A stretch of DNA of 64,000 bases from contig JAJDDT010000116.1 in the NCBI GenBank assembly GCA_029260165.1, positions 1-64,000 of the forward strand, given 5' to 3'. The translations under genes were made by a program, and so were the position numbers. Below, one piece after another: positions 49,713 to 62,791 of the stretch (the stretch's first letter is position 1; every line of letters starts with the position of its first letter). The stretch is from Phycisphaerae bacterium. GTDB taxonomy: Bacteria; Planctomycetota; Phycisphaerae; UBA1845. The notes under the pieces were generated by a model, which saw nothing but the letters and a program-made list of their open reading frames with translations, was not told the origin of the DNA and ran no database searches.

Positions 49713-50597
49713 CTACCTGACTGTCGCACGGCGGGAATAACGAAGCGACAATACTGCGACAGCGAACATCGTCAGCACCATGGCGAGCATTCCCCATTCG
49801 GAAGTCGTGGGGACGGCGGACACCGCAGGTGCGGTCGGGAAATTTTGTTGGATGTACAGTCCGAGGTCTGCGGCTCCCTGGTCGGAACCACCGTTCTGAG
49901 TCCAACTCGGCATCGCGGGTTGGCTACCCGGTTGCCCGACGCGAATCTTGTGCATGAACTCCCACGGGTTGCTTACCGCAACCGTTCCGACCCACTCGGG
50001 ATTTTCGGGGGTACCGAAATTGAGATCGGTACCGTCGTCTCCGTGGCAGAAGAAACAAAAACCGCTTCCGGTGTAGTTGGCTTCACCCTGCACGGGGTCG
50101 CCGACAAATTGAGTGCCGTTGAGGAATGCGGCTGGGTCGACCAATTGTGTCTGGAGAAATGCAACAATGTCGTCGATGTCTGCGTCGGACAGGCCAATCG
50201 TTCCGAAACCGTGACCGTTGACATTTGTGCCACCCGTACCGTCGCCGTCCGGGTTTTTGATGATGTCGAACATCTGCGCGGGCGTCATGGCTGAGGTCAA
50301 CACGCCTGGAATGCCCGTGAAGTGCGACGAGCCGACAGCGTACGCTCCGGCGGCGCCTTTGTAGTCCCAACCGTGACATTCCTTGCAACGGAAGGTCGTG
50401 TTACCGGATTGCTGTCCAACCGCAGGATATAGCGGATGCTCGCCAACCGGGGCGGGGGAACCATTCCCGGTCCACCATTTGTCGTACAGCCGTCCCCCCT
50501 GGAACGCGTCCTGTGCGACGGCTTGTGATGACAGGCAAAAGACAACGACGGCCAACGCACCCAACGAGGTGCGCGCACTGAGTGGGCGGTATTCCAT
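49713..50597 (-). CDS. secreted diheme cytochrome c with C-terminal membrane-anchor sorting-like tail
   Basis: It has a signal peptide and the heme motifs CKECH and CFFCH. The C-terminus is PTTSEWGMLAMVLTMFAVAVLSLRYSRR. Confidence 0.8.
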   Translation of the reverse strand: MEYRPLSARTSLGALAVVVFCLSSQAVAQDAFQGGRLYDKWWTGNGSPAPVGEHPLYPAVGQQSGNTTFRCKECHGWDYKGAAGAYAVGSSHFTGIPGVLTSAMTPAQMFDIIKNPDGDGTGGTNVNGHGFGTIGLSDADIDDIVAFLQTQLVDPAAFLNGTQFVGDPVQGEANYTGSGFCFFCHGDDGTDLNFGTPENPEWVGTVAVSNPWEFMHKIRVGQPGSQPAMPSWTQNGGSDQGAADLGLYIQQNFPTAPAVSAVPTTSEWGMLAMVLTMFAVAVLSLRYSRRATVR

Positions 50598-50789: not shown

Positions 50790-53700
50790 CTATTCACCGC
50801 CGAACTTCCACCAGCGTTTTTTGCCGGCGATTGACGGATCGGGGTTGTTTTTCTCATTCTCGATGATCTTGAGCAGGTCGGCGTCGCTCATCGTGGGGCC
50901 CTTGATGCGGCGGAGCATGCGCAGTTTTTCGCGGGTCTCGTCGTCGAGTCCCTCGGGCAGGGCATCCTGGGAAACGTCTGCGGGGGGTTGGTTCGACTCC
51001 GGTGTGTGATCGTTTTCCTTTGCGGTGGGCTGATCCTGTTCCTTATTGGCGGCGATACTTTTCCCGGACACAGCGGACGATTTCGATTCGGTTTTTGCTT
51101 TTGGTTCACGTTTCCTCGATTTCTCTTCGACAACCCGGCTTGAAAGATCAACGGGACCAACGTTGCCTTGTTCGTTGACAAGCTCGACGGTTTCACGAGC
51201 GGCGGCGGATGCCTGCTCGGCGGCTTCGGTGATTTCGTCCTGTTGTCTGGTAAGATTCGCCTGCAATTCATCGAGTGCAGAGCGGTGTTTTTCGAGATCA
51301 TCACGCCACTGTTCGAGTGCTTTGCGCTCGGTGCCAAGCTCCTCGGCCCATTCCTCCGCTTCGGTTTCACGTTTCGAGATATGTTGTTCGGCGGTTGATG
51401 TTTCCGCGTTTTGCGATTCGACGGACTCGATGCGTTTCTGAAGATCGTTGCGCTGTTGTTCGAGTTTTTGTCTGTCGGCATGGAAACCTTCCCGCTCGAC
51501 GGCCAGCGATTTTTCTCGCTCTTCCACGTCTTTGAGAAATTCCTCCAACTCGGCGCGATCGCTCCGGGACGAATTGGCTTGCTGAGCAACTGACGATTGC
51601 TCCCGAGCCATCTGGTCTTGTTTTTCGACGAGTTCCTTTTTCTGCGACTCGAGTTCCCGGCGTTGCCCGTCAAGTTCGGACGATTGTGATTGCAGTTGCT
51701 CCTGTTGGGATTCGAGCTGTTCACGCAGTTCGACGATCGTCTGCTGTTCATGCTCGAGCGATTGGCGTTTCTCGGTGACGGCGTTGTGTTCGGACTGTTG
51801 CGATCCTCGTTGTTGTTCCAGTTGCTTTTTGATTTTTTGAAGCTCGGCGTTTTCGCTCGCGAGTTTGTCGCGATCGGAATCGGTTTTCTGACGCTCGACA
51901 TCGAGGCTGGCCTGCTCGCTGGCGGTTTGCTCGAGCTTTGTTGACAGTTCGTCACGTTGTAACTGCAGCTTTTCACGCTCGGCGGCGAGTCGTTGTCGTT
52001 CGGTGGCGATCTGGGTGGCTTCGTCCTGATGATCGCCCAGTTCGGAGGTGAGGCGATTGCGTTCGTCATCGAGTTCGGCGCGTTCGTCGGCGAGTCGTTG
52101 CTGATCGGATTTGATCTGCCGACGCTTTTCGGCCAACTGCTCTCGTTCCGATTTTAGCTGGGCGGTTTCGGCGTTGTGTTTTTCGGTTAGTGCGTGGACG
52201 CGTTCGGTCTCGGCGTTGGATTCGGCCTGCTGGGCGGCGATTTTTTCGGCAGACGATTCGAGCGATTGTTTTTGTTGTTCGAGTTCGAGTCGTGTGGCTT
52301 TGAAAGATTCGCGATCGCTGCGAAGACGGGTTTGCAACGCCTCTGCCTGCGCGTGGGCCTTGTCGATTTCCGCCCGCTCGGCGCTCAGGGCGGAGCGATC
52401 CTTGGCGATCTGTTCCCGTTCGGATTGCAGCAGTTGGCGCTCGGCGGCGGACCGCTCGCCTTCACCGCGACATTGTTCGACCTCCGCCTGGAATTTTTGA
52501 CGAACGTCTTTGAATTGTTTTCGTTCGGAATCGAGCCTCTTGCGATCAGCCAACTGCTTTTCGCGTTGTTCGCTCGCGCCTCGCTGGTCCTGCGCGAGAC
52601 GGGCACGCTGTTCCTCGATCGATTCACGATCCGACGCGGCGCGGACGGACTCGGAGCGGAGTTGTTCCTTGTCTTTTTCCAGCGCGGACCTGGTCTTCTC
52701 GAGGTTGCCCGTTGCGGCTTCGATGGCTTGTGATCGCTGTGCGACGTCGGCGCTGTGTTTTCGCAATTCGCCCTTTTGCGATTCAAGACGCTCCCTGTCC
52801 GCTTCAATCTCGGAGGCTTGCTTGCGGATGGCGTCGCGATGTTGGATCAACTCGGCCTTTTGCTGATCCTGCAACTTGGCGCATTGCTGCAATTTTGCGT
52901 TTCGATTCTCGATTTTCGACTGGTTCTGCGCGATCTCCTGCGCGCGTTGGTCCAGTTCCGAACGCTTCTGGTCTAGTTGCTTCACCTCCGTTTGCAGGCT
53001 TGAGTGCTGTTGTTTGAGATTGGCTTCCTGATCCCTGACGTGGGCACCCTGCTTTTCGATTTCCGCCCGTTGTTGCTGCAACCGGTTGTGGTCTTCGGTG
53101 ATTTTCGCGGTCTGTTTTTCAAGATTGGCGGACTTTTTCGCGGATTCAGCCGCCTGTTGCTCCAACTGCTTCGATCGGCCATCAAGACCCTGCTCGCGTT
53201 GGGTTTGTTTGACGCCGGCCTGCTCGACGGCGTGCCTGGTTTGTTCCAACTCTTTCTTCTGCGCGCCGAGCTTTTCATGTTGGTCAGCCAGCGATTTTCG
53301 TTCCGCCTCGATGGTCTTGCTGCGTTCGCCGAGCTTTGATCGTTCGTCCTTGATGGCGGACCGCTCGGATTCAAATTTCCGGAACTGTTCCTGCAGTTGC
53401 TTCGCACGCTCTTCGAGTTTCGATTGCCCGTCCCTGATCGCCGCCTGTTCGGACTCCTGCTGTTTTGACTGCTCCTGGAGGTTTTTCGCCTGCTCTTCGA
53501 GTTTCGATCGTCCGTCCCTGATGGCGGACCGCTCGGATTCCAGCCGCTTTGACAGATCCTGAAGCTGCACAGACTGGTCGTCGAGTTTGTTTTGCGATGC
53601 TGCAATCTGCGTGTCGCGTTCCCTGGCAGCCAGCACCGCAGCCTGAACCTGCTCCTGTTTTCCGGCCAGCTCAGTTTGCTGGGATTCCAGTCTGGCCTGC

Positions 53701-54902
53701 AGCGAGTTCAGCGATTTCTCGCGGTCGCCCATTTTGGTTTGACGCGCTTCCAATGCTTGAGCGTGTTTGTTGATTTCACCGCCACGCGACTCGAGTTTTT
53801 GCGCGGTCGCGGCTTGCTCCTTTGCGATCGCGTCCAATTGATTGCGTTGATCCGCAAGCTGTTGGGCTTGTGCTTCGTGTTGCTGTTTACTCTTGGCGAG
53901 GTCAGCCGATTGCTGATCCAACTGCTGCTTCTGCTGATCCAGTTGCTGTTTGTGCTGCTCAAGATGCTGCTGTTGCTGCTCAAGTTTCTTCTGTTCGATC
54001 GCCCTCTTTTCGAGCGCCTGCTCTTTCTCCTTCAAACCGGCTGCCTGCGATTCGATCCTGTTGGCACGCTCGTCAAGCTTCTGCTGCTCCTGTTGAACAG
54101 CGATCTGACGCTGCTCCGATTGCTCCTGATCTTTTTGGAGTTTTTGTCCCTGATCTTCGATCTGCCGGCGACGTTGCTCTATCGCCTGGACATCGGCAGC
54201 CAGCTTCTGCTGCTGGTCCGATAGCGATTGTTGGGCGGTGGCGAGCGTTTCCTGCTGTTCCCGGACCTGGGTTTCCCGGCTGGCGATCTCTTGTTCAGCG
54301 GCTTCGATTTTTTTCCGGCGTGCATCGAGCTTTGCGGTTCGATCCGACCATTCCCGGTCGCGGGCGGCGAAGTCCGTTTTGGTGCGTTCAAATTCAGCCT
54401 TCTCTTTTTTCAGAGACTCATTTCGGCCTGCCAGCGCGTTAGCGTCCTGTTCAATCCCTGATTTTGTGGTTGCGAGTTTTTTTTGTTCGATCCCAATCTG
54501 CTCGAATTGTTGGGCAATTTCGATTGCCTGTGCTTCGAGTTTCTTTTCGCGGTCCGCGGCTGATTGCTCACGGTCTGATAATGTGGCAGCGAGGTCATTA
54601 TTTTTCTTTTTTTCTGCCTCGATTTGTTGCGCACGTTCTCGGACGGCGGAATTTTGAGCCTCAACCTCCTCCGCGTGCTGCTTCGTTCTGCCGGCAAATT
54701 TCTCGACGCGGGCTCGCCATTCGTCAATTTGCTGCCACGATTGCGCGACACTTTTCTGAATCGTTTCAATGCGTTCGGTCACGGAAACGAGAACGTCCGA
54801 AATCCGGTCGTGGCTGGACACAGCCTGCCCGCGCGAGCCGGTTTTCGCATTATCGGTTTCGGGTGAATTCATATCGGGATTCGCCAGGTTCGCATCAGTC
54901 AT
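50790..54902 (-). CDS. giant (1370 aa) coiled-coil protein
   Basis: It shows heptad-like Q/E/K/R/A/L-rich sequence along almost the whole length and no NTPase motifs. The C-terminal tail is ...SIAGKKRWWKFGGE. Confidence 0.8.
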   Translation of the reverse strand: MTDANLANPDMNSPETDNAKTGSRGQAVSSHDRISDVLVSVTERIETIQKSVAQSWQQIDEWRARVEKFAGRTKQHAEEVEAQNSAVRERAQQIEAEKKKNNDLAATLSDREQSAADREKKLEAQAIEIAQQFEQIGIEQKKLATTKSGIEQDANALAGRNESLKKEKAEFERTKTDFAARDREWSDRTAKLDARRKKIEAAEQEIASRETQVREQQETLATAQQSLSDQQQKLAADVQAIEQRRRQIEDQGQKLQKDQEQSEQRQIAVQQEQQKLDERANRIESQAAGLKEKEQALEKRAIEQKKLEQQQQHLEQHKQQLDQQKQQLDQQSADLAKSKQQHEAQAQQLADQRNQLDAIAKEQAATAQKLESRGGEINKHAQALEARQTKMGDREKSLNSLQARLESQQTELAGKQEQVQAAVLAARERDTQIAASQNKLDDQSVQLQDLSKRLESERSAIRDGRSKLEEQAKNLQEQSKQQESEQAAIRDGQSKLEERAKQLQEQFRKFESERSAIKDERSKLGERSKTIEAERKSLADQHEKLGAQKKELEQTRHAVEQAGVKQTQREQGLDGRSKQLEQQAAESAKKSANLEKQTAKITEDHNRLQQQRAEIEKQGAHVRDQEANLKQQHSSLQTEVKQLDQKRSELDQRAQEIAQNQSKIENRNAKLQQCAKLQDQQKAELIQHRDAIRKQASEIEADRERLESQKGELRKHSADVAQRSQAIEAATGNLEKTRSALEKDKEQLRSESVRAASDRESIEEQRARLAQDQRGASEQREKQLADRKRLDSERKQFKDVRQKFQAEVEQCRGEGERSAAERQLLQSEREQIAKDRSALSAERAEIDKAHAQAEALQTRLRSDRESFKATRLELEQQKQSLESSAEKIAAQQAESNAETERVHALTEKHNAETAQLKSEREQLAEKRRQIKSDQQRLADERAELDDERNRLTSELGDHQDEATQIATERQRLAAEREKLQLQRDELSTKLEQTASEQASLDVERQKTDSDRDKLASENAELQKIKKQLEQQRGSQQSEHNAVTEKRQSLEHEQQTIVELREQLESQQEQLQSQSSELDGQRRELESQKKELVEKQDQMAREQSSVAQQANSSRSDRAELEEFLKDVEEREKSLAVEREGFHADRQKLEQQRNDLQKRIESVESQNAETSTAEQHISKRETEAEEWAEELGTERKALEQWRDDLEKHRSALDELQANLTRQQDEITEAAEQASAAARETVELVNEQGNVGPVDLSSRVVEEKSRKREPKAKTESKSSAVSGKSIAANKEQDQPTAKENDHTPESNQPPADVSQDALPEGLDDETREKLRMLRRIKGPTMSDADLLKIIENEKNNPDPSIAGKKRWWKFGGE

Positions 54903-55125
54903 AACGTTGCGCGATCCTCGGTTGGTAAGGTCCTGTAACGCATGTCCGCCACAGTCCGATTCGATATACCCGCAAATCTTTTATCCACGGGTTCGGACAA
55001 ACTGACTGGTCTGTCACAAACGTATCGTACAATTCGATCGTGTGATGCGACTCGTGCGTATCGACACGTCCTGTCTAGATCGACACGAGGGCGTTGGCTT
55101 TTGAACTAGACCACCTCGGGACAAG

Positions 55126-56010
55126 GTGGGGAGGGCCACGATGGCCGAAAGATTAAAAACCATGGAAGCGTTGACCGCGCCGTCCGGTATGGAACCTCTG
55201 AGGCTGCTTGCCGACGACGCGATGGCGGAACTGACCAAAGCGTTGGAGGTTATTCGGACGCATGCCGATGAGCTGTTCAACGAACATACTCAAATTCAAT
55301 CCGCACGCGCAAAGATTCAACATGAGCAGAAAGCGATGCTGGAGCATAAAGCTACGCTGGAATCGCGTGAGCTTGAGTTGTCTGCGGTGCGAGACAATTT
55401 GGGTGTCGAAAAGAAAGCGGTTGCGCAGCGCGAGCTTGGATTGTCCGATGATTGTAAAAGACTCGAAAAAGCCCGGACGGTGCTTGGAAGCGAGCAGGCA
55501 GAACTGGAAAATTCGCGAAACGCGCTCGAAGAGGCTAGGCGCTCGTTGAAGATCAGCCAGACGGATCTTGCCGAAGCTCAATCGCGGCTTGATGACCGGG
55601 CGCATAAAATTGACGAGCGTGATGGGACGTTGAAGCAACGGGAATCCGGATTGAAAGCACAGGTGGCTGAGCTTGAGTCTCGTCGCGAGGATTTGGAAAT
55701 GCTGACGGATCAACTGAAGCGTGAGCATCGTGAATTGTCGACGCAGCGGGAGCAGTTGGCCAGGCGGCTCGTCTCGGTGGCTGACATAGATTCGGAACCG
55801 ATCGCCCCGCCATTGCCAAAATCCGCATCGGATCAGGCGGTGGCGACACCGAAAGAGATGCCCCGCGTTCAGGCACCCGCTCCGGTGGCTCAACCGATGA
55901 ATGGTGAGGGCGAGGCGACAGCGGATCGTCCGGTGCGGTCGCATCCTGCGGCGGACCAGTTCCGAAAACTGCGGCGTGATGCGAAACGCCGCGTCAAGGG
56001 GCTTGGGTAG
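55126..56010 (+). CDS. coiled-coil protein with basic C-terminal tail
   Basis: It has an E/R/L-rich coiled-coil, then a Pro/Ala-rich segment, then RKLRRDAKRRVKGLG. Confidence 0.6.
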   Translation: MGRATMAERLKTMEALTAPSGMEPLRLLADDAMAELTKALEVIRTHADELFNEHTQIQSARAKIQHEQKAMLEHKATLESRELELSAVRDNLGVEKKAVAQRELGLSDDCKRLEKARTVLGSEQAELENSRNALEEARRSLKISQTDLAEAQSRLDDRAHKIDERDGTLKQRESGLKAQVAELESRREDLEMLTDQLKREHRELSTQREQLARRLVSVADIDSEPIAPPLPKSASDQAVATPKEMPRVQAPAPVAQPMNGEGEATADRPVRSHPAADQFRKLRRDAKRRVKGLG

Positions 56011-56075
56011 GGGCGACGAGCGCGGGAGCGGACGACATCGAATTGGCCAAACGCCAAACGAAGGGGGCTTGTTGA

Positions 56076-57131
56076 ATGGCATTGTCGTTGTTTTCAAAAA
56101 AGAAGGGTGTTTCAGCCGAATCAGACGTGGAGGTCCGCACGCCTCTGCGTGTCGAGCCCCCGCCACCATCGCCTGATTCACTCCTTGCGGAGTTCAAGCC
56201 AGCCACTCCCGAAAAGGAGGAAACAGACGAGCTGCTCCGCCTGTTTCAACGCCGTCGGTACGCATTCATCATTGACAATGCGGACCACTGGCAGGCGCAC
56301 CCGAGTGTTGAGCGCATCATCGATCAGTCACACGAAGCGCTGGAAAGCGGATTTGCGCTGGTGCCGGCGGGGGCTGCTTCGTTGGCGCAAACGGTGTCCG
56401 ACGACGCGAGCAGTCCGCAGCTCGATGTTGACGTCGAACCGTTTCTCATGGCGGTCCATCCGGTCACCAACGCTGATTTTCAGTATTTTGTGGACGGTGG
56501 TGCCTACGAGAATCTCGATCTCTGGCCGGAAGAGATTTGGCCTTACCTGATCGAGTTTCACGACCTGACCGGTACGCTGGGTCCACGGTATTGGCGTGAC
56601 GGTCGTCATGATTTCCGCAAAGCCAACCACCCCGTCATCGGCGTGAGTTGGTACGAAGCCAACGCGTATGCAACGTGGGCTGGTGTGCGACTCCCGACCG
56701 AAGCGGAATGGCAGATGGCAGCCAGTTGGCGTATTCGCAGTTCGACCGATGTCTTCCGTCGATTCCCATGGGGCGATGCGATGGACTGGACCCGTTGCAA
56801 CCTGTGGAACGCCGGTCGTGGCACGACGGTCGCGGTGGATGAATACGCCGAAGGGGGCGCTCCCAACAATGTTCTGCAGATGATCGGAAACGTGTGGGAA
56901 TGGGTGGGCACGGAATTCAACATCCTGGCGGACGATCAATCACCGATCGTCGGTGAGATGCCGATGATGGGCGTTCGCGGGGGATCGTTCGATACCTACT
57001 TTGAGTCGCAGGCGACAAGCCTGTTCCGGTCCGGACAGATTGCGTTGGGACGTACGCACAATCTCGGTTTTCGCTGCGCTCTCGACATCGAGAGTCCGAC
57101 CGAAGAAACCGCTTCCGAAGGGGACGACTAA
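56076..57131 (+). CDS. FGE-sulfatase/SUMF1 (DUF323) domain protein, probably non-catalytic paralog
   Basis: It has GNVWEWV, RGGSF and a C-terminal GFRCA. Only a single Cys sits where true formylglycine-generating enzymes carry two. Confidence 0.8.
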   Translation: MALSLFSKKKGVSAESDVEVRTPLRVEPPPPSPDSLLAEFKPATPEKEETDELLRLFQRRRYAFIIDNADHWQAHPSVERIIDQSHEALESGFALVPAGAASLAQTVSDDASSPQLDVDVEPFLMAVHPVTNADFQYFVDGGAYENLDLWPEEIWPYLIEFHDLTGTLGPRYWRDGRHDFRKANHPVIGVSWYEANAYATWAGVRLPTEAEWQMAASWRIRSSTDVFRRFPWGDAMDWTRCNLWNAGRGTTVAVDEYAEGGAPNNVLQMIGNVWEWVGTEFNILADDQSPIVGEMPMMGVRGGSFDTYFESQATSLFRSGQIALGRTHNLGFRCALDIESPTEETASEGDD

Positions 57132-58001
57132 ATGTCGATCGCATTGAGTGCAACGCAGTGTCTGATCTGCCAGCAGGAAAACACGGAAGACGCGTACTGC
57201 TGTGCGCTTTGTTCCGCACCGATGTCATTATCGCGGGAGGCGTTGATTCAGAACCGCCACCCCAACATGATCACCGTCATCGGGGACAGCAACGTCGGCA
57301 AGACCGTTTATCTTGGTTACCTGCTCGACATGTTGACGCGACGCGCAGGCGAATATGAATCGGTACCCAAGGGACCGTTTTCGATCAACCTTCAGCAAAA
57401 CGTGATGAGCCACCTGGCCATGCGGTTGTTCCCCCCGAAGACACCCAACGAGGTCGACCAATGGCATTGGGCATACTGTCAGACCGCACACAAGCGACGT
57501 CCCGATCAGTGGTTCGATCTGGTCATGCCGGACATGGCTGGCGAGTCGATCGGAACCGAACTCGACGCTCCGGGAAGCTATCCCGCCATTCAGGGATTGC
57601 TCACGCAGAGTCGCGGTATCATGTTGCTCGTTGACGCATCGGCTGCGGCAATGGGCAACGTGCAGGCGGACTTCTTTGCGTTCAAATTGATGAGCTACAT
57701 CGATCAACTGGCTGCCCTCGGCACGGAAACAAAAGTCGCAACACCGGTGGCTGTTGTCCTTTGCAAGTCTGATTATTGCCCACAGTCGTTTGACGATCCG
57801 ATCACGTTTTCCCAGACCAACCTCAACCGCCTCTGGAATCTCTGCGATTCGCGATTCACCAACGTCGCCTACTTCGCCGCCAGCGTCATCGGTGCGATCG
57901 GCTACGGAACCGACGAGGACGACAACGTCGTGTCGGTTCCACTGCACTCCGCGCCACGCGGTATTCTGGAACCATTTGAATGGTTGATCACAGCCCTGTG
58001 A
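57132..58001 (+). CDS. small Ras-like P-loop GTPase with N-terminal zinc ribbon
   Basis: Its ATG directly abuts the upstream TAA. It has CLICQQ...CCALC (CxxC...CxxC), the G1 motif GDSNVGKT, the G3 motif DMAGE, the G4 motif LCKSD and a G5-like FAAS. Confidence 0.8.
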   Translation: MSIALSATQCLICQQENTEDAYCCALCSAPMSLSREALIQNRHPNMITVIGDSNVGKTVYLGYLLDMLTRRAGEYESVPKGPFSINLQQNVMSHLAMRLFPPKTPNEVDQWHWAYCQTAHKRRPDQWFDLVMPDMAGESIGTELDAPGSYPAIQGLLTQSRGIMLLVDASAAAMGNVQADFFAFKLMSYIDQLAALGTETKVATPVAVVLCKSDYCPQSFDDPITFSQTNLNRLWNLCDSRFTNVAYFAASVIGAIGYGTDEDDNVVSVPLHSAPRGILEPFEWLITAL

Positions 58002-59197
58002 TGCAGGTCGACCATGCAGTCTTCACGTCGAGCGAAACCCGCATGGCACAGGGATATCGCATCGTCGCGTCATCCGCCAATCTGACCGCCGACGAAAAAA
58101 AACACATCACCACCGCCAGCCCGTCGCACTCAGCCATGTGCCCGATCAACGACGACAACATCGGCCTGTCGTTTTATCCACTACGCAGCGGGCGATATTG
58201 CATCGCACGCACCACCCACGCTGGTCTCGAACAAACCGCACGCGGTGGGCAACGCGTGCTCACGCAATCATTTGTTCTGTCCGCCGATCAACTGCTCGCG
58301 TTTGACAACAATCCGTTCGCCATCCTTGGCGCACTCAATCGCGGCGGCGCGTTTGAATTCGACGAACTACCGAAAGGCCAACTGGAACCCATCGAACTCG
58401 ACGCACCAACCGGGACGTCGTCGTTCAACACAAGCATTGTCGACGACCCCGCAACGTTCATCCTGCTGGCCAACACTTTTGCAACCGACGCGATGATCAC
58501 CATAGGCGTTGGAGACATCGTAAGCCTGCTCGAAACCGCGTTGATGTTTTTGCCCAGGCCGCTGCGATTGAATTACTCGTTCACAATGGGTCTGAAATTC
58601 GCCCTTTCGCGTCGATACCGCCTGCACGCAATCGGTGAGGCGGACCTCGCAACCAAACGCGTTATCCGGGGTCAACCCATTCAACTCGTTGAAGACCTGC
58701 GAAAAAACACCCCCGAGTCCCCATCCCATCCCTGGACCGATCTTTGGACCGACTGCGTTGGTGTCGGAAAGCTTGATATGCTCGCAAGCCTCGCAAGCGA
58801 CGAATTTGACAGCACCGACGACCACACATTGAGCGAGGTAGCCACCTATCAAAAGGCGATTAACCACATCGCCGACGAACCACTCGAGGCACTCCTGGCT
58901 GGGTGGCAGCCTGTCTCCGACGACGAACTCCCGGAAACCAACATCGAACGAACGATGTTGAAGCGATACATCACCGCCAAAAAATCTCGAACGATCACTG
59001 CAATGAGCACCGCAGACGCGTCCACCCTGACGCCATGCTGGAGTTGGATCACGCAGTTGGCGCTATCCGACGAGAATATCCGCAAGGCGTGCGAAGCCGC
59101 AGCGAATCGCATCGACGAGTTAACCTGCCCATGGCTTTCGGAACGCGAGCCATCGCAACCCGACGCAATTCCGCACGAATCCGCACCACATTCCTGA
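58001..59197 (+). CDS. hypothetical 399-aa protein translationally coupled to the GTPase
   Basis: Its ATG overlaps the GTPase stop (TGATG). No motif was recognised. Confidence 0.6.
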   Translation: MQVDHAVFTSSETRMAQGYRIVASSANLTADEKKHITTASPSHSAMCPINDDNIGLSFYPLRSGRYCIARTTHAGLEQTARGGQRVLTQSFVLSADQLLAFDNNPFAILGALNRGGAFEFDELPKGQLEPIELDAPTGTSSFNTSIVDDPATFILLANTFATDAMITIGVGDIVSLLETALMFLPRPLRLNYSFTMGLKFALSRRYRLHAIGEADLATKRVIRGQPIQLVEDLRKNTPESPSHPWTDLWTDCVGVGKLDMLASLASDEFDSTDDHTLSEVATYQKAINHIADEPLEALLAGWQPVSDDELPETNIERTMLKRYITAKKSRTITAMSTADASTLTPCWSWITQLALSDENIRKACEAAANRIDELTCPWLSEREPSQPDAIPHESAPHS

Positions 59198-59223
59198 GTG
59201 TCCGCGTGGGTGATGAATGCAAT

Positions 59224-59248
59224 GTAGCGTCACCCCTTGTGGGTGACG
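59224..59248. repeat. REP-like hairpin GTAGCGTCACCCcttgtGGGTGACG (copy 1), probable terminator
   Basis: It has an 8-bp stem and a 5-nt loop. An identical copy lies at 60730..60754. Confidence 0.6.
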
Positions 59249-59417
59249 GGAACACGAAACGACGTCATCTTGCAATCGCGCCGCCAACAACGAACGACGC
59301 TGCAAGAGTGCAAAGCACGATGATCGTGCCCACCGATTCTGCCACGGCCCCGTTGTCGCTCAATCCGTGCACGGGTATCATCCCGACATCGGGCAACCTG
59401 TCTCAAGTGTGTTGACT

Positions 59418-60632
59418 ATGTCAGATTCGATCAACTCCGCGTCACTCAATCTCCCTTCCGGAACTGAACTCGCATTTGGCACACTCCTCAACGTCTGCTC
59501 CACCCTGAATCAGCCCGGTACTGCGCAGGAATTGCTGGACAACCTTCTCCTGCAAGCCCGACGACTCGTCAACGCCCAGGCGGGCACCGTGTTCCTCGTC
59601 AACCACAGCCAACTGCGGTTCGTCTGTTGCCAGAACGACGCAAGGCCCGACCTTTGCGTCGCGCCAAAACCATACGAACTCGATCGTGTTTCGCTTTCGG
59701 GTACCAGAATATCAGTAGATGAGACGTCGCTGGCGGGTTACGTCGCAAGGTACAAGGAACCACTTCGCATCGACGATGCCTACAACATGCCGTCCAGTGT
59801 TTGTCACAAATTCGACACGTCGCACGACAAGACCACAGGCTACAGAACGAAATCGCTGCTTGTGATCCCCCTGATCGACCGCCTTGGGGACACCGTTGGC
59901 GTACTGCAACTTATCAACAAGCAGATACCCACCGGCGAAACAGACACCGCGTTCACCGAGCGCGACCAGCAGATCGCGCTGGCTGTTGCATCCCTGGCCG
60001 CCGTCTGCATTCGCAATGCAAAGCTGCGCGACACTCTTCGCGACTCGCACCTCGACACCATCATGCGCCTGTCAACCGCCGCAGAATTTCGCGACGATGA
60101 CACAGGGCAACATATTCGTCGCGTCAGCTTTTATTGTGAAACGATCGCAAGAAACGCGGGATGCGGACCGGAAACGTCGCAGATTATCCTGTTTGCAAGC
60201 CCCATGCACGACATCGGAAAACTCGGTATCCCCGACGCCATCCTGACAAAACCCGGTCCGTTATCGCGCGAAGAGCGGTTGGCCATGCAGGAGCATACGG
60301 TGCTCGGCGCGAAAATATTGAATGGTTCAGACAACGAGATTATCGCAATGGCAGAGTCGATCGCGCTGGCGCATCACGAAAAATGGGACGGGTCGGGCTA
60401 TCCCGCAGGCCTGCGCGGCGAGGATATTCCCCTCCCAGGCCGCATCTGCGCGGTGGCGGACGTGTTCGACGCACTCACATCCAAACGCGTTTACAAGAAC
60501 GCCTTCCCGTTCAGCGAAGCCATCGATTTGATCCGTCAGGGAATCGGGACACACTTCGACCCCTGGCTTGTTGACGTTTTTCTCTCCGCCAGGGGCGAAA
60601 TCGAAATCATCCACGAAGCGCTGACGGAATAA
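59418..60632 (+). CDS. GAF-domain HD-GYP phosphodiesterase (c-di-GMP)
   Basis: It has HD...HDIGK and HHEKWDGSGYP (GYP), preceded by a GAF domain. Confidence 0.85.
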   Translation: MSDSINSASLNLPSGTELAFGTLLNVCSTLNQPGTAQELLDNLLLQARRLVNAQAGTVFLVNHSQLRFVCCQNDARPDLCVAPKPYELDRVSLSGTRISVDETSLAGYVARYKEPLRIDDAYNMPSSVCHKFDTSHDKTTGYRTKSLLVIPLIDRLGDTVGVLQLINKQIPTGETDTAFTERDQQIALAVASLAAVCIRNAKLRDTLRDSHLDTIMRLSTAAEFRDDDTGQHIRRVSFYCETIARNAGCGPETSQIILFASPMHDIGKLGIPDAILTKPGPLSREERLAMQEHTVLGAKILNGSDNEIIAMAESIALAHHEKWDGSGYPAGLRGEDIPLPGRICAVADVFDALTSKRVYKNAFPFSEAIDLIRQGIGTHFDPWLVDVFLSARGEIEIIHEALTE

Positions 60633-60808: not shown

Positions 60809-61255
60809 TTACGGCGCGTCATCATTCCCGCGTGACAGCCAGAGAAGGTGCAACACAAACGCGACGATGGCCGTCGCGCCGACAAACCCCATTGCATCAA
60901 GCCCACCAAGCCTGACGCCCGACTGACTCAGGACACCGATCACCACACCAGCCACCACCTCCATCGCAACGAGCAGCTTCAGATAGGACAACCAGTCGAC
61001 CAGTGGCGTCCCCTTTCCACCCAGCGGTGACGTCTCAAGAACCGCCTGCGCCTGCATGATCGGGCGTCTCCAGACCAGATACGCAACACCAAGCGCCGCC
61101 AGAAGCAACAGCGCGTAAACCTTCCCCCATTGCGTGAGACTCGGCACCTCGACACGTCCACTGTCACCACCGGAATCACCGGCTCCGAACAGCAGCCAGA
61201 ACCCCGTCGCAACAAGCAACGACCCAATCCACGGAATAACCCAGGAACGTTTCAT
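60809..61255 (-). CDS. hypothetical multi-pass membrane protein
   Basis: It has four hydrophobic helices and no recognisable motif. Confidence 0.45.
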   Translation of the reverse strand: MKRSWVIPWIGSLLVATGFWLLFGAGDSGGDSGRVEVPSLTQWGKVYALLLLAALGVAYLVWRRPIMQAQAVLETSPLGGKGTPLVDWLSYLKLLVAMEVVAGVVIGVLSQSGVRLGGLDAMGFVGATAIVAFVLHLLWLSRGNDDAP

Positions 61256-61417: not shown

Positions 61418-62791
61418 TTACGCGGCGGACACGCGCGAACGCGTCACGAGCACAAAGCCCATGCCGACGAACAGGCACGCCAGAACGATTTTGGTCATCT
61501 GACCCAAAGCAGGAATCGGCTCGATGAAGCAGACGGTGTCATCACCCCGGCTCCAGTCACCGCTCGTGCCGAACGGGCTGAAATTGCCCGAACCGCAGGC
61601 ACCGGCTGCGTCCGACTGCGTTGCCCATGCGCGAACGCCGTCCGCGAGAATCGTCTGCTCCTCGGTCACAATATCCTCACCAACGACCACGCGGGCCATG
61701 ACGAGTGTGTCCGTGTCACCGTTGCGACTACCCGCAATACGACCAAACGCCGTCTCCTGCGGTGCGAGGAAGCCACCGAAGAAGCGAAGAACGGTCGTGC
61801 CATTGGCCCAGGGCTCGCAGAATTCCACATCAAAACCCGGAGGAGGCGTGACGTTTGCCAAATCCTCGCAATCCGGTCCACCATCGCCCTTGCTGACGGC
61901 AAGGTAGAACTCGGTGATCTCAAAACCCGGAGCCGGCGTGTTGCGGTTCTCAATGTCAAAACCATAGTTGCAGCAACCGGTCTCGGGGTCCGAAAGGTCA
62001 TTCAGGAAAATATCGACATCCGGTGTGATCCGCTCCGCACCACCCGACGAAAACGTCATGCAATAGGCAAGGTCGTAGTCATTGCCGTCGAGGTCATCAG
62101 GACCATAATCGCCGTCACCATCGTCTTCCTGAGCAGATGCACCATCACCCGGAGGCGCGGTCTCCCAGAAGAAGAAGCATTCGGTCCCCACGGGAGCGGC
62201 ATTCGTGATCTCAACATGGTAATCATCCAGGGGAAGATCAATCGGCGTGTTCAACACAAACGTCCATCTGATCTCAGGCGTCAGCCCCGCAAGGATATTC
62301 CCGGTTTGCATGTCCGTGAGCGTACCGACCGACTGCGGCAGATCGAAGATCACGTTCGTCTCGTCGGGAACGCCGTTGTCGTCACCAAGAATCCGAACCG
62401 TGAAATTGTTGATACCATCTGCAACACAGTCCGCGAATCCGTTCGGTGGCGGAATAAGCCAGACACCCTGCCATTCGATCTGCGACACAGTACCACCCGT
62501 CAGAAAACGAAAATTGTCCGCGGCACGAAGACCAGCCTCTGTATCCGAATTGACCGCCAACGTACCCATCGCACCCTGACCAGCCTGGTCGGATTCCTGG
62601 CAGGTCGTGCCGCTGTCACCAGCCGCCTGCGTCTCGCCCTTTGCACTCGCGACAAAATTCGGATCCTCAAAAACCCGCACAGACCGCGAACGAAAACTGC
62701 TCTTCTCCTGCGCTACCGCCAACGCACCAGACGCAAGAACGCCCAATGCAAGCACCATTGTGTCTTTTGTCTTCATCAACCTTCTCCTCAT
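61418..62791 (-). CDS. secreted Asp/Gly-rich protein with C-terminal membrane-anchor sorting-like tail
   Basis: It has the signal peptide MRRRLMKTKDTMVLALGVLASGALAVAQ and acidic repeats. The C-terminus is IPALGQMTKIVLACLFVGMGFVLVTRSR. Confidence 0.6.
   Translation of the reverse strand: MRRRLMKTKDTMVLALGVLASGALAVAQEKSSFRSRSVRVFEDPNFVASAKGETQAAGDSGTTCQESDQAGQGAMGTLAVNSDTEAGLRAADNFRFLTGGTVSQIEWQGVWLIPPPNGFADCVADGINNFTVRILGDDNGVPDETNVIFDLPQSVGTLTDMQTGNILAGLTPEIRWTFVLNTPIDLPLDDYHVEITNAAPVGTECFFFWETAPPGDGASAQEDDGDGDYGPDDLDGNDYDLAYCMTFSSGGAERITPDVDIFLNDLSDPETGCCNYGFDIENRNTPAPGFEITEFYLAVSKGDGGPDCEDLANVTPPPGFDVEFCEPWANGTTVLRFFGGFLAPQETAFGRIAGSRNGDTDTLVMARVVVGEDIVTEEQTILADGVRAWATQSDAAGACGSGNFSPFGTSGDWSRGDDTVCFIEPIPALGQMTKIVLACLFVGMGFVLVTRSRVSAA

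Follow-up and report, generated by a model that had tools for sequence, protein, structure and literature searches.

A planctomycete DO-GTPase/GAP1-N2 locus with an FGS protein and two coiled-coil components

The locus

We analysed a 64,000-nucleotide stretch of DNA from a Phycisphaerae bacterium (positions 1 to 64,000 of contig JAJDDT010000116.1, GenBank assembly GCA_029260165.1), referred to here as the window, in which four co-directional plus-strand open reading frames (ORFs) occupy 55126-59197. They encode a coiled-coil protein (gene 1), a protein with a domain like that of the formylglycine-generating enzyme (FGE), here called FGS, a zinc-ribbon small GTPase and its partner GAP1; the gene for a giant coiled-coil protein diverges from them. 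The locus is a member of the GAP1-N2 DO-GTPase system in its FGS-containing form, in Planctomycetota and mostly in Phycisphaerae. The DO-GTPase and GAP1 families were defined computationally by Kaur, Burroughs, Iyer & Aravind (eLife 2020, PMC7159879; cited throughout from its accessible text). Because that work already includes planctomycete versions with FGS domains, the view in the original prediction, made from the sequence alone, that this is not a described system was mistaken.

Coordinates of the four ORFs were confirmed from the ORF list and by direct reading of the junctions (Table 1), and the predicted layout was recovered in full. Gene 1 and the FGS gene are separated by 65 bp, the TAA of the FGS gene is followed immediately by the ATG of the GTPase gene (0 bp), and a TGATG gives a 1-nt overlap between the GTPase and GAP1 genes. 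All four ORFs are genuine rather than chance frames, since each of them is conserved in numerous homologues, arranged alike in other genomes. The window contains one copy of the cassette.

Two starts have alternatives. For gene 1, the ATG is more likely than the GTG, as it agrees with the gene calls in two related loci (L001 and L087); a GGAGG lies 7 nt 5' of this ATG. The divergent giant is 223 bp away when measured to the GTG, as originally given, and 238 bp when measured to the ATG. For GAP1, an alignment of homologues (13 sequences) favours the start at 58001 (MQVDHAVFTS) over an ATG at 57980, which would overlap the GTPase gene by 22 nt; the protein has 398 residues, not 399 as first stated. 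No sigma-70-like site was found in the divergent intergenic region, and promoter and terminator scans of 54700-59500 did no better than on shuffled sequence.

Table 1 Features of the locus, in window coordinates
Feature	Position	Strand	Description
Giant coiled-coil protein, fifth module component	50790-54902	-	1370 aa, divergent
Giant conserved C-terminal domain	50799-50990	-	LDDETREKLRMLRRIKGPTMSDADLLKII...GKKRWWKFG
Intergenic region between giant and operon	54903-55140	.	common to both divergent units
Gene 1, coiled-coil protein	55141 (ATG) to 56010	+	289 aa; alternative GTG at 55126 gives 294 aa
Gene 1 C-terminal basic tail	55957-56007	+	near-invariant; QFRKLRRDAKRRVKGLG
FGS (FGE-like) protein	56076-57131	+	351 aa; FGE-sulfatase domain, C-type-lectin fold
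DO-GTPase	57132-58001	+	289 aa; N-terminal zinc ribbon, small G domain, C-terminal beta-rich extension
GTPase zinc ribbon	57159-57212	+	C10, C13, C24, C27
GAP1	58001-59197	+	398 aa; predicted longin-like N, alpha/beta middle and helical C domains
GAP1-N2 longin-like domain	about 58001-58345	+	

The GTPase and GAP1

The GTPase matches PF19975 (40.8 bits) and PF19993 (39.2 bits), each with a cut-off of 27, and E values against DO-GTPase1 and DO-GTPase2 are 2e-10 and 8e-10, respectively. The DO-GTPase assignment is common to 764 homologues. Its G motifs are complete and invariant among homologues, with a Walker B segment (DLVMPDMAGE138) in which D134, G137 and E138 are unchanged in 47 sequences; the DxxGE signature places a glutamate where Ras has its catalytic glutamine. 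The four zinc-ribbon cysteines are likewise invariant in 47 homologues, and the GTPase has no second CxxC pair. Structure searches return Rag, Miro, Rab, SR-beta, Arf and MglA as fold neighbours; sequence and profile searches of PDB sequences gave nothing meaningful for this protein. The Pfam assignment, the invariant CxxC...CxxC and the Ras-type neighbours together bear out the predicted Ras-like G domain with a zinc ribbon of its own.

GAP1, described at first as a partner without recognisable motif, does have one: Pfam reports GAP1-N2 (PF20013, E=3.9e-11; 43.6 bits, where the cut-off is 24) and, at E<=0.1, no family besides GAP1-N2 and GAP1-N1. The AlphaFold2 model of GAP1 is confident (pLDDT 86, pTM 0.80) and consists of three domains, residues 1-115, about 125-235 and 244-381. 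The N domain follows the order b-b-a-b-b-b-a-a, which is that of longin domains, the middle domain is a five-strand alpha/beta unit and the C domain is all-helical. An independent Foldseek search places FLCN at the top (E 1.5e-5, probability 0.93), followed by DENND10 (0.96), FNIP2 and TagF, with global TM-scores that are low (0.16-0.31). A profile of 13 GAP1 sequences found nothing at E<=0.1 among PDB sequences, and no Pfam DENN or longin family matches GAP1. The most conserved residues, including E77, R81, G82 and R85, lie within the longin-like domain. This longin-like predicted fold, seen in two structure searches, agrees with the earlier suggestion that the partner is a roadblock/longin-type GTPase-activating protein (GAP) or guanine-nucleotide exchange factor (GEF).

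A DENN module is built from a longin domain, a five-strand alpha/beta DENN domain and a d-DENN domain, in that order (PMC3521125), and the tripartite layout predicted for GAP1 resembles this description. Such modules are regarded as a eukaryotic invention upon a prokaryotic roadblock/longin ancestor (PMC3521125). On present evidence GAP1 should not be filed as a DENN-family member, because the agreement is one of fold, in a predicted structure, without agreement in sequence. In its mode of action, the locus is plausibly comparable to a small GTPase controlled by a regulator of longin-DENN kind. A literature search for a link between bacterial GAP1 and longin or DENN proteins found none, and the accessible text of PMC7159879 makes no mention of either relationship.

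Recurrence and composition of the module

GTDB species representatives, scanned with a seven-sequence alignment, gave 104 relatives and returned 80 loci, which come from 80 different assemblies with one locus each. Loci were retrieved by two peptide patterns, so the sample is skewed to this subfamily. Co-occurrence was surveyed with hidden Markov models (HMMs) built from the window and the first loci, against naive six-frame ORFs in contigs of metagenome-assembled genomes (MAGs). Under the taxon labels given by MAG submitters, nearly all loci belong to Phycisphaerae or Planctomycetota MAGs, with three odd labels (Binatota, Alphaproteobacteria and 'uncultured bacterium'); the labelled distribution is essentially one phylum. 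The closest relative (L001) is a Phycisphaerae MAG with 63% GAP1 identity and full synteny. In the protein database, close relatives of GAP1 are few (13 matches).

The GTPase gene adjoins GAP1 in 87 of 87 loci and the FGS gene is adjacent in 85 of them. Directly upstream of FGS lies a tail-bearing coiled-coil ORF (71 of the 76 loci with room for it). Of the 63 non-duplicate loci whose upstream sequence extends to 3 kb or more, 56 have next to the cassette an ORF in which an HMM detects the giant's C-terminal domain. Since the giant C-domain protein accompanies the cassette to this extent, the module has five genes, and the giant, noted at first as divergent from the operon, is functionally linked to it. 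Contigs inspected one by one have the constant order of a protein without Pfam family, FGS, DO-GTPase and GAP1, set in varying flanks. The genes do co-occur elsewhere, and the same order in more than 80 loci confirms a conserved, co-inherited operon. Median identities to the window across 66 loci are 57% (GTPase), 53% (FGS), 31% (GAP1) and 27% (gene 1).

An ordinary housekeeping GTPase of Era/EngB type, next to the other three genes by accident, would explain a generic P-loop and nothing beyond it. No NCBIfam housekeeping GTPase model matches the protein, Pfam gives DO-GTPase, and the four-gene order is repeated in more than 80 loci with unrelated flanks. These results refute the Era/EngB identity, which the original prediction had named as an outcome that would speak against it, and we give this reading practically no credence.

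One metagenomic contig departs from the pattern. In L003 (7140-9074), FGS is a 169-aa fragment and the gene-1 tail motif lies in a separate 83-aa ORF, which points to frameshifts, through either assembly error or decay of the cassette.

The FGS protein

FGS matches PF03781 over residues 95-335 (E=7e-40), and FGE entries in the PDB match with E down to about 1e-17. The N-terminal ~95 aa are weakly conserved, and Pfam gives no second domain there. In the alignment, S. coelicolor FGE RGGSYLCHDSYCNRY lies opposite RGGSF---DTYFESQ of the window protein, such that the position of the first catalytic cysteine becomes a gap and the second a phenylalanine. The prediction that the domain is non-catalytic is upheld by this alignment; its count of one catalytic cysteine out of two is not, as neither is present. 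The replacement motif, RGG(S/A)FDTYFE, is conserved across 85 homologues. Only two cysteines occur in the window protein, C241 (RCNLW) and C334 (GFRCA), and both motifs are also found in S. coelicolor FGE, outside its LCHDSYC segment. In the absence of the catalytic pair, FGS is not to be classed as an FGE. The non-catalytic paralogue SUMF2/pFGE (PDB 1y4j) is among its best PDB matches. With a median identity close to that of the GTPase, FGS is a conserved core subunit and not a variable effector.

An active FGE-, EgtB- or OvoA-like enzyme, with the zinc-ribbon GTPase as its metallochaperone or activity regulator, would fit the strong similarity of FGS to the FGE-like domains of EgtB, OvsA and FGE, and also the 0-bp gap between the two genes. 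It is very unlikely and was rejected: both FGE catalytic cysteines are lost across the family, the EgtB, SenA and OvoA models cover the FGE-like region only (113 bits against a cut-off of 360), no second Pfam domain occupies the N-terminal extension, pFGE/SUMF2, the nearest precedent without catalysis, stands high among the PDB matches, and the GTPase is of the DO-GTPase/extended-Ras type.

A receptor diversified by a diversity-generating retroelement was also considered for FGS and rejected; FGS is 53% conserved, and no Pfam reverse transcriptase occurs in the neighbouring ORFs scanned.

The coiled-coil proteins

Gene 1 and the giant have only generic coiled-coil matches, to SMC, JetC and HmpF. 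Likewise, PADLOC and NCBIfam searches with all five module proteins returned only generic coiled-coil (SMC/JetC) and EgtB-domain matches, none of them particular to the GTPase or GAP1. Homologues of gene 1 lie directly upstream of FGS and measure 180-441 aa or more, some lengths being inflated by antisense ORFs in coiled-coil DNA (L031, L035 and L055). Their basic tail has the family consensus F[RQ]KL[RC]RDAKR[RK]AIG, in which D is kept in 71/71 sequences, L in 70/71 and K in 69/71.

The giant has no Pfam family. E, Q, K, R, A, L and D make up 72% of its residues, and heptad-like segments extend along most of its length. Giants of 23 loci have in common a C-terminal domain of ~60 aa with the consensus DLDPETAxKLKxLRRLNPxKSxxELLxQI...KKxWFxR. 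This fifth component takes two forms: a divergent giant of 541-1632 aa (39 loci) and a short co-directional gene of 171-306 aa just upstream of gene 1 (17 loci). Rod lengths of both coiled-coil proteins are thus highly variable, from about 170 to 1632 aa. No transmembrane-grade hydrophobic segment occurs in any of the five module proteins.

In both proteins a disordered proline-rich linker is followed by a similar basic helix (gene 1, FRKLRRDAKRR; giant, EKLRMLRRIKG); judging by this resemblance, the two helices may share a single docking site or compete for it. Where the gene-1 tail reads FQKLCRDAKR, in one subclade, the giant is replaced by the short co-directional form of the fifth component. 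At the DNA level, AT skew within 50790-54902 falls to -0.47 at 52-54 kb owing to the giant gene, and this region contains many long spurious ORFs in other frames or on the other strand, such as those at 50888-52069 (393 aa) and 52982-53605 (207 aa).

Genomic neighbourhood

Genes near the cassette in the window are of housekeeping type: RNase E/G, glutamate dehydrogenase, a PEP-utilising enzyme, a c-type cytochrome and a sigma-54 activator. Across 125 flanking ORFs of related loci, the commonest Pfam families are FTCD (formiminotransferase-cyclodeaminase, 7 ORFs), glycosyltransferases, cyclase, amidohydrolase, Lgt and tRNA-modification enzymes; transposases, integrases, restriction and toxin-antitoxin families are absent from the 25 commonest. 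PADLOC gave few, generic matches in these 125 ORFs, and none of its models matches the GTPase, GAP1 or FGS. No relatives of the GTPase were found in plasmid, phage and IMG/VR collections. Among the annotated neighbourhoods, the only defence-like context is that of L002 (300-3436), a relative with 40% identity. Flanks differ between distant genomes.

FTCD, which in L003 (11833-13521) lies just downstream of GAP1, recurs in a manner that suggests a conserved chromosomal position in one subclade. In the window, a plus-strand gene for a protein with GAF and HD-GYP-type (HD_5) domains follows GAP1 by 169 bp (59367-60632); it is probably a signalling protein of cyclic-di-GMP phosphodiesterase type. 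It occupies this position only in the closest relative, L001. FTCD, an endonuclease or a helicase is found there in other loci and, as these genes are unrelated, the GAF/HD-GYP gene is probably outside the module.

Three further minus-strand genes deserve description. A 294-aa di-haem-type c cytochrome (49713-50597; Cytochrome_CBB3 and Cytochrom_C) has a hydrophobic C-terminus with a weak match to the IPTL-CTERM sorting motif (E 0.02). A 457-aa protein (61418-62791) has an N-terminal signal-like segment, a C-terminal hydrophobic anchor and no Pfam family, and a 148-aa multi-pass membrane protein (60809-61255) also lacks a Pfam family. The latter two genes are syntenic in L001, where the larger has a faint DUF7901 match.

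A proposed mechanism

We propose that the zinc-ribbon small GTPase would serve as a nucleotide switch, cycling between GTP and GDP, and that GAP1 would be its dedicated regulator, as GAP or GEF, a role suggested by the structure model. GAP1 would exert its effect via the conserved face of its longin domain, in which E77, R81 and R85 are candidates for contact residues or arginine fingers. FLCN and NPRL2 have arginines in their longin domains, and it is by analogy with these that R81 and R85 are candidate fingers. FGS would be a non-catalytic, lectin-fold binding subunit, putatively a peptide- or ligand-binding adaptor, and we suggest that it is stoichiometric with the GTPase, since their genes are coupled by TAA-ATG and the two proteins are conserved to a similar degree.

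The two coiled-coil proteins would act as scaffolds or tethers of variable length that dock via conserved terminal peptides. The candidate docking elements are FRKLRRDAKRRxxG in gene 1 and the ~60-aa giant C-domain, whose basic-aromatic end (KKRWW/KKRGWF) is possibly membrane-bound. By sequence, the end of the giant (KKRWWKF/KKRGWF) and the N-terminus of FGS (MxLxLFxRK) both resemble motifs for peripheral membrane binding, consistent with the view in PMC7159879 that N2 systems act near the membrane.

Biological role

This molecular mechanism is the same whether the module organises cells or takes part in conflict. We slightly favour the former over anti-phage defence, and hold, tentatively and at a little less than an even chance, that the locus is a chromosomally and vertically inherited, lineage-specific cell-organisation switch for the assembly or positioning of a coiled-coil structure. 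The following observations lead us there. Composition is constant, with a conserved FGS and no toxic or enzymatic effector; the module is confined to essentially one phylum by label, with one copy per assembly; its flanks are housekeeping genes, among which FTCD recurs, and are not enriched in mobile or defence genes; and plasmid, phage and IMG/VR relatives are lacking, as is any PADLOC model for the GTPase, GAP1 or FGS.

The same parts could instead serve biological conflict or immunity, which is how the authors of the family read it (PMC7159879) and which the original prediction had touched on in likening the operon to NTP-dependent signalling/conflict modules, a resemblance that coincides with this published classification. 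The GTPase-GAP1 pair would then be a threshold-setting switch coupled to the sensing of an invader such as a phage, sensing would fall to the fast-evolving C-terminal region of GAP1 and to the coiled-coils, and FGS would be an effector or decoy that binds invader molecules or forms a superstructure containing the infection or killing the cell. Several points favour this and weigh against a cell-organisation role. The published classification names FGS 'effectors' in planctomycetes. Divergence is much more rapid in GAP1 (31%) and the coiled-coil protein of gene 1 (27%) than in the GTPase, and the coiled-coils vary in length from about 170 to 1632 aa, which makes an arms race possible. L002 has HEPN/nucleotidyltransferase (HEPN/MNT) and HicA toxin-antitoxin genes a few kb away, and flanks differ between distant genomes.

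Three further points count against our preferred explanation more generally: none of the 80 listed loci comes from a named cultured isolate, and the distribution may therefore be patchy; naive ORF calling in MAG contigs is a weakness of the neighbourhood survey; and a literature search found no experimental work or follow-up on DO-GTPase/GAP1 proteins. Conflict is nonetheless opposed by the constancy and good conservation of FGS, by a module without nuclease, protease, pore or other toxic effector, by core proteins that match no PADLOC model, by 125 flanking proteins that are overwhelmingly housekeeping with few generic PADLOC matches, by the lack of relatives in plasmid, phage and viral-contig collections, and by the single-phylum labelling with one copy per assembly. 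We regard a role in conflict as a serious possibility, and as the less probable of the two.

A bolder version of the cell-organisation reading is that a Rag/Arf/Rab-like GTPase has in GAP1 a genuine bacterial regulator of longin-DENN type, whether by homology or by convergence, and that, with C-terminally anchored long coiled-coils and a lectin-fold adaptor, it would form a membrane-associated tethering or positioning machine in Phycisphaerae, members of a phylum noted for complex envelopes and for the absence of FtsZ. We consider this reading improbable. Were it true, the module would be a prokaryotic counterpart of eukaryotic modules made of a small GTPase, a DENN protein and a coiled-coil tether, and the entire DO-GTPase/GAP1 family would have to be re-read as pairs of a GTPase and a DENN-like regulator.

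The locus itself is not new, its family having been defined computationally in 2020. What the analysis adds makes that family more tractable. In this lineage, the constancy of the five genes and their defined peptide motifs offer a clean target for reconstitution; the FGS 'effector' becomes a conserved, non-catalytic core subunit; and GAP1 is predicted to be longin-DENN-like, beside a GTPase that resembles Rag, Rab and Arf. The predicted fold turns GAP1 from a protein of unknown function into a concrete GAP/GEF hypothesis with candidate arginine-finger residues. A bacterial regulator combining longin, DENN-like and helical domains, encoded beside its GTPase, would bear on the history of DENN modules, and the context data question a defence role for this subtype.

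Comparison with known systems

The closest described relatives are the GTPase-centric systems of PMC7159879, built around two core proteins. The first is a TRAFAC GTPase that has zinc ribbons at its N-terminus and a glutamate in its Walker B motif; the second, 'GTPase-associated protein 1', is encoded downstream, has three domains and belongs to one of two types, N1 and N2. Systems of type N2 are found among actinobacteria, firmicutes, planctomycetes, verrucomicrobia and chloroflexi, usually with two zinc ribbons and usually with a rapidly evolving FNIII-repeat protein; some planctomycete ones have FGS domains, termed 'effectors'. The window agrees with these in the DO-GTPase G domain, Walker B glutamate and N-terminal zinc ribbon of its GTPase, in a GAP1 with a GAP1-N2 domain encoded directly downstream, and in a planctomycete host with an FGS-domain protein in the operon.

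It differs in having one GTPase and not a paralogous pair, one zinc ribbon where two are usual, and neither an FNIII-repeat protein nor transmembrane segments. Neither the five module proteins nor the scanned neighbours match a Pfam FN3 family; as PMC7159879 itself describes planctomycete FGS versions, the FNIII component is typical and not obligatory. Two coiled-coil proteins with conserved terminal motifs replace the repeat component, and FGS of the window type is a constant, well-conserved core where the published one is a variable effector.

Like window FGS, pFGE/SUMF2 has the FGE-sulfatase fold and has lost the catalytic cysteine pair. The window protein differs from it in lacking a signal peptide, in its ~95-aa N-terminal extension and in its operon coupling to a GTPase.

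We also compared the pair with eukaryotic longin-DENN regulators (DENND1A-Rab35, DENND10, FLCN-FNIP2 with RagC, NPRL2/3 with RagA, C9orf72-SMCR8 and Mon1-Ccz1). GAP1 has no detectable sequence similarity to them and global TM-scores are low, and the window pair is bacterial and operon-encoded, with a GTPase that has a zinc ribbon and DxxGE. MglA-MglB, from Myxococcus and other prokaryotes, resembles the pair at the level of fold only, and membership was rejected given the Pfam DO-GTPase and GAP1-N2 assignments. The window GTPase is not an MglA, GAP1-N2 has, in the predicted structure, the longin strand order as against the circularly permuted one of roadblock and is followed by two further domains, and MglAB has no counterpart of FGS or of the coiled-coil partners. 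TagF, a type VI secretion system (T6SS) accessory protein (PDB 9t0n and 6iz8), differs in that GAP1 has no sequence similarity to it and the window no T6SS context. Relative to the accessible text of PMC7159879, three elements of this subtype are previously unreported: the two coiled-coil components with their motifs, FGS as a non-catalytic core, and the predicted longin-DENN-like fold of GAP1.

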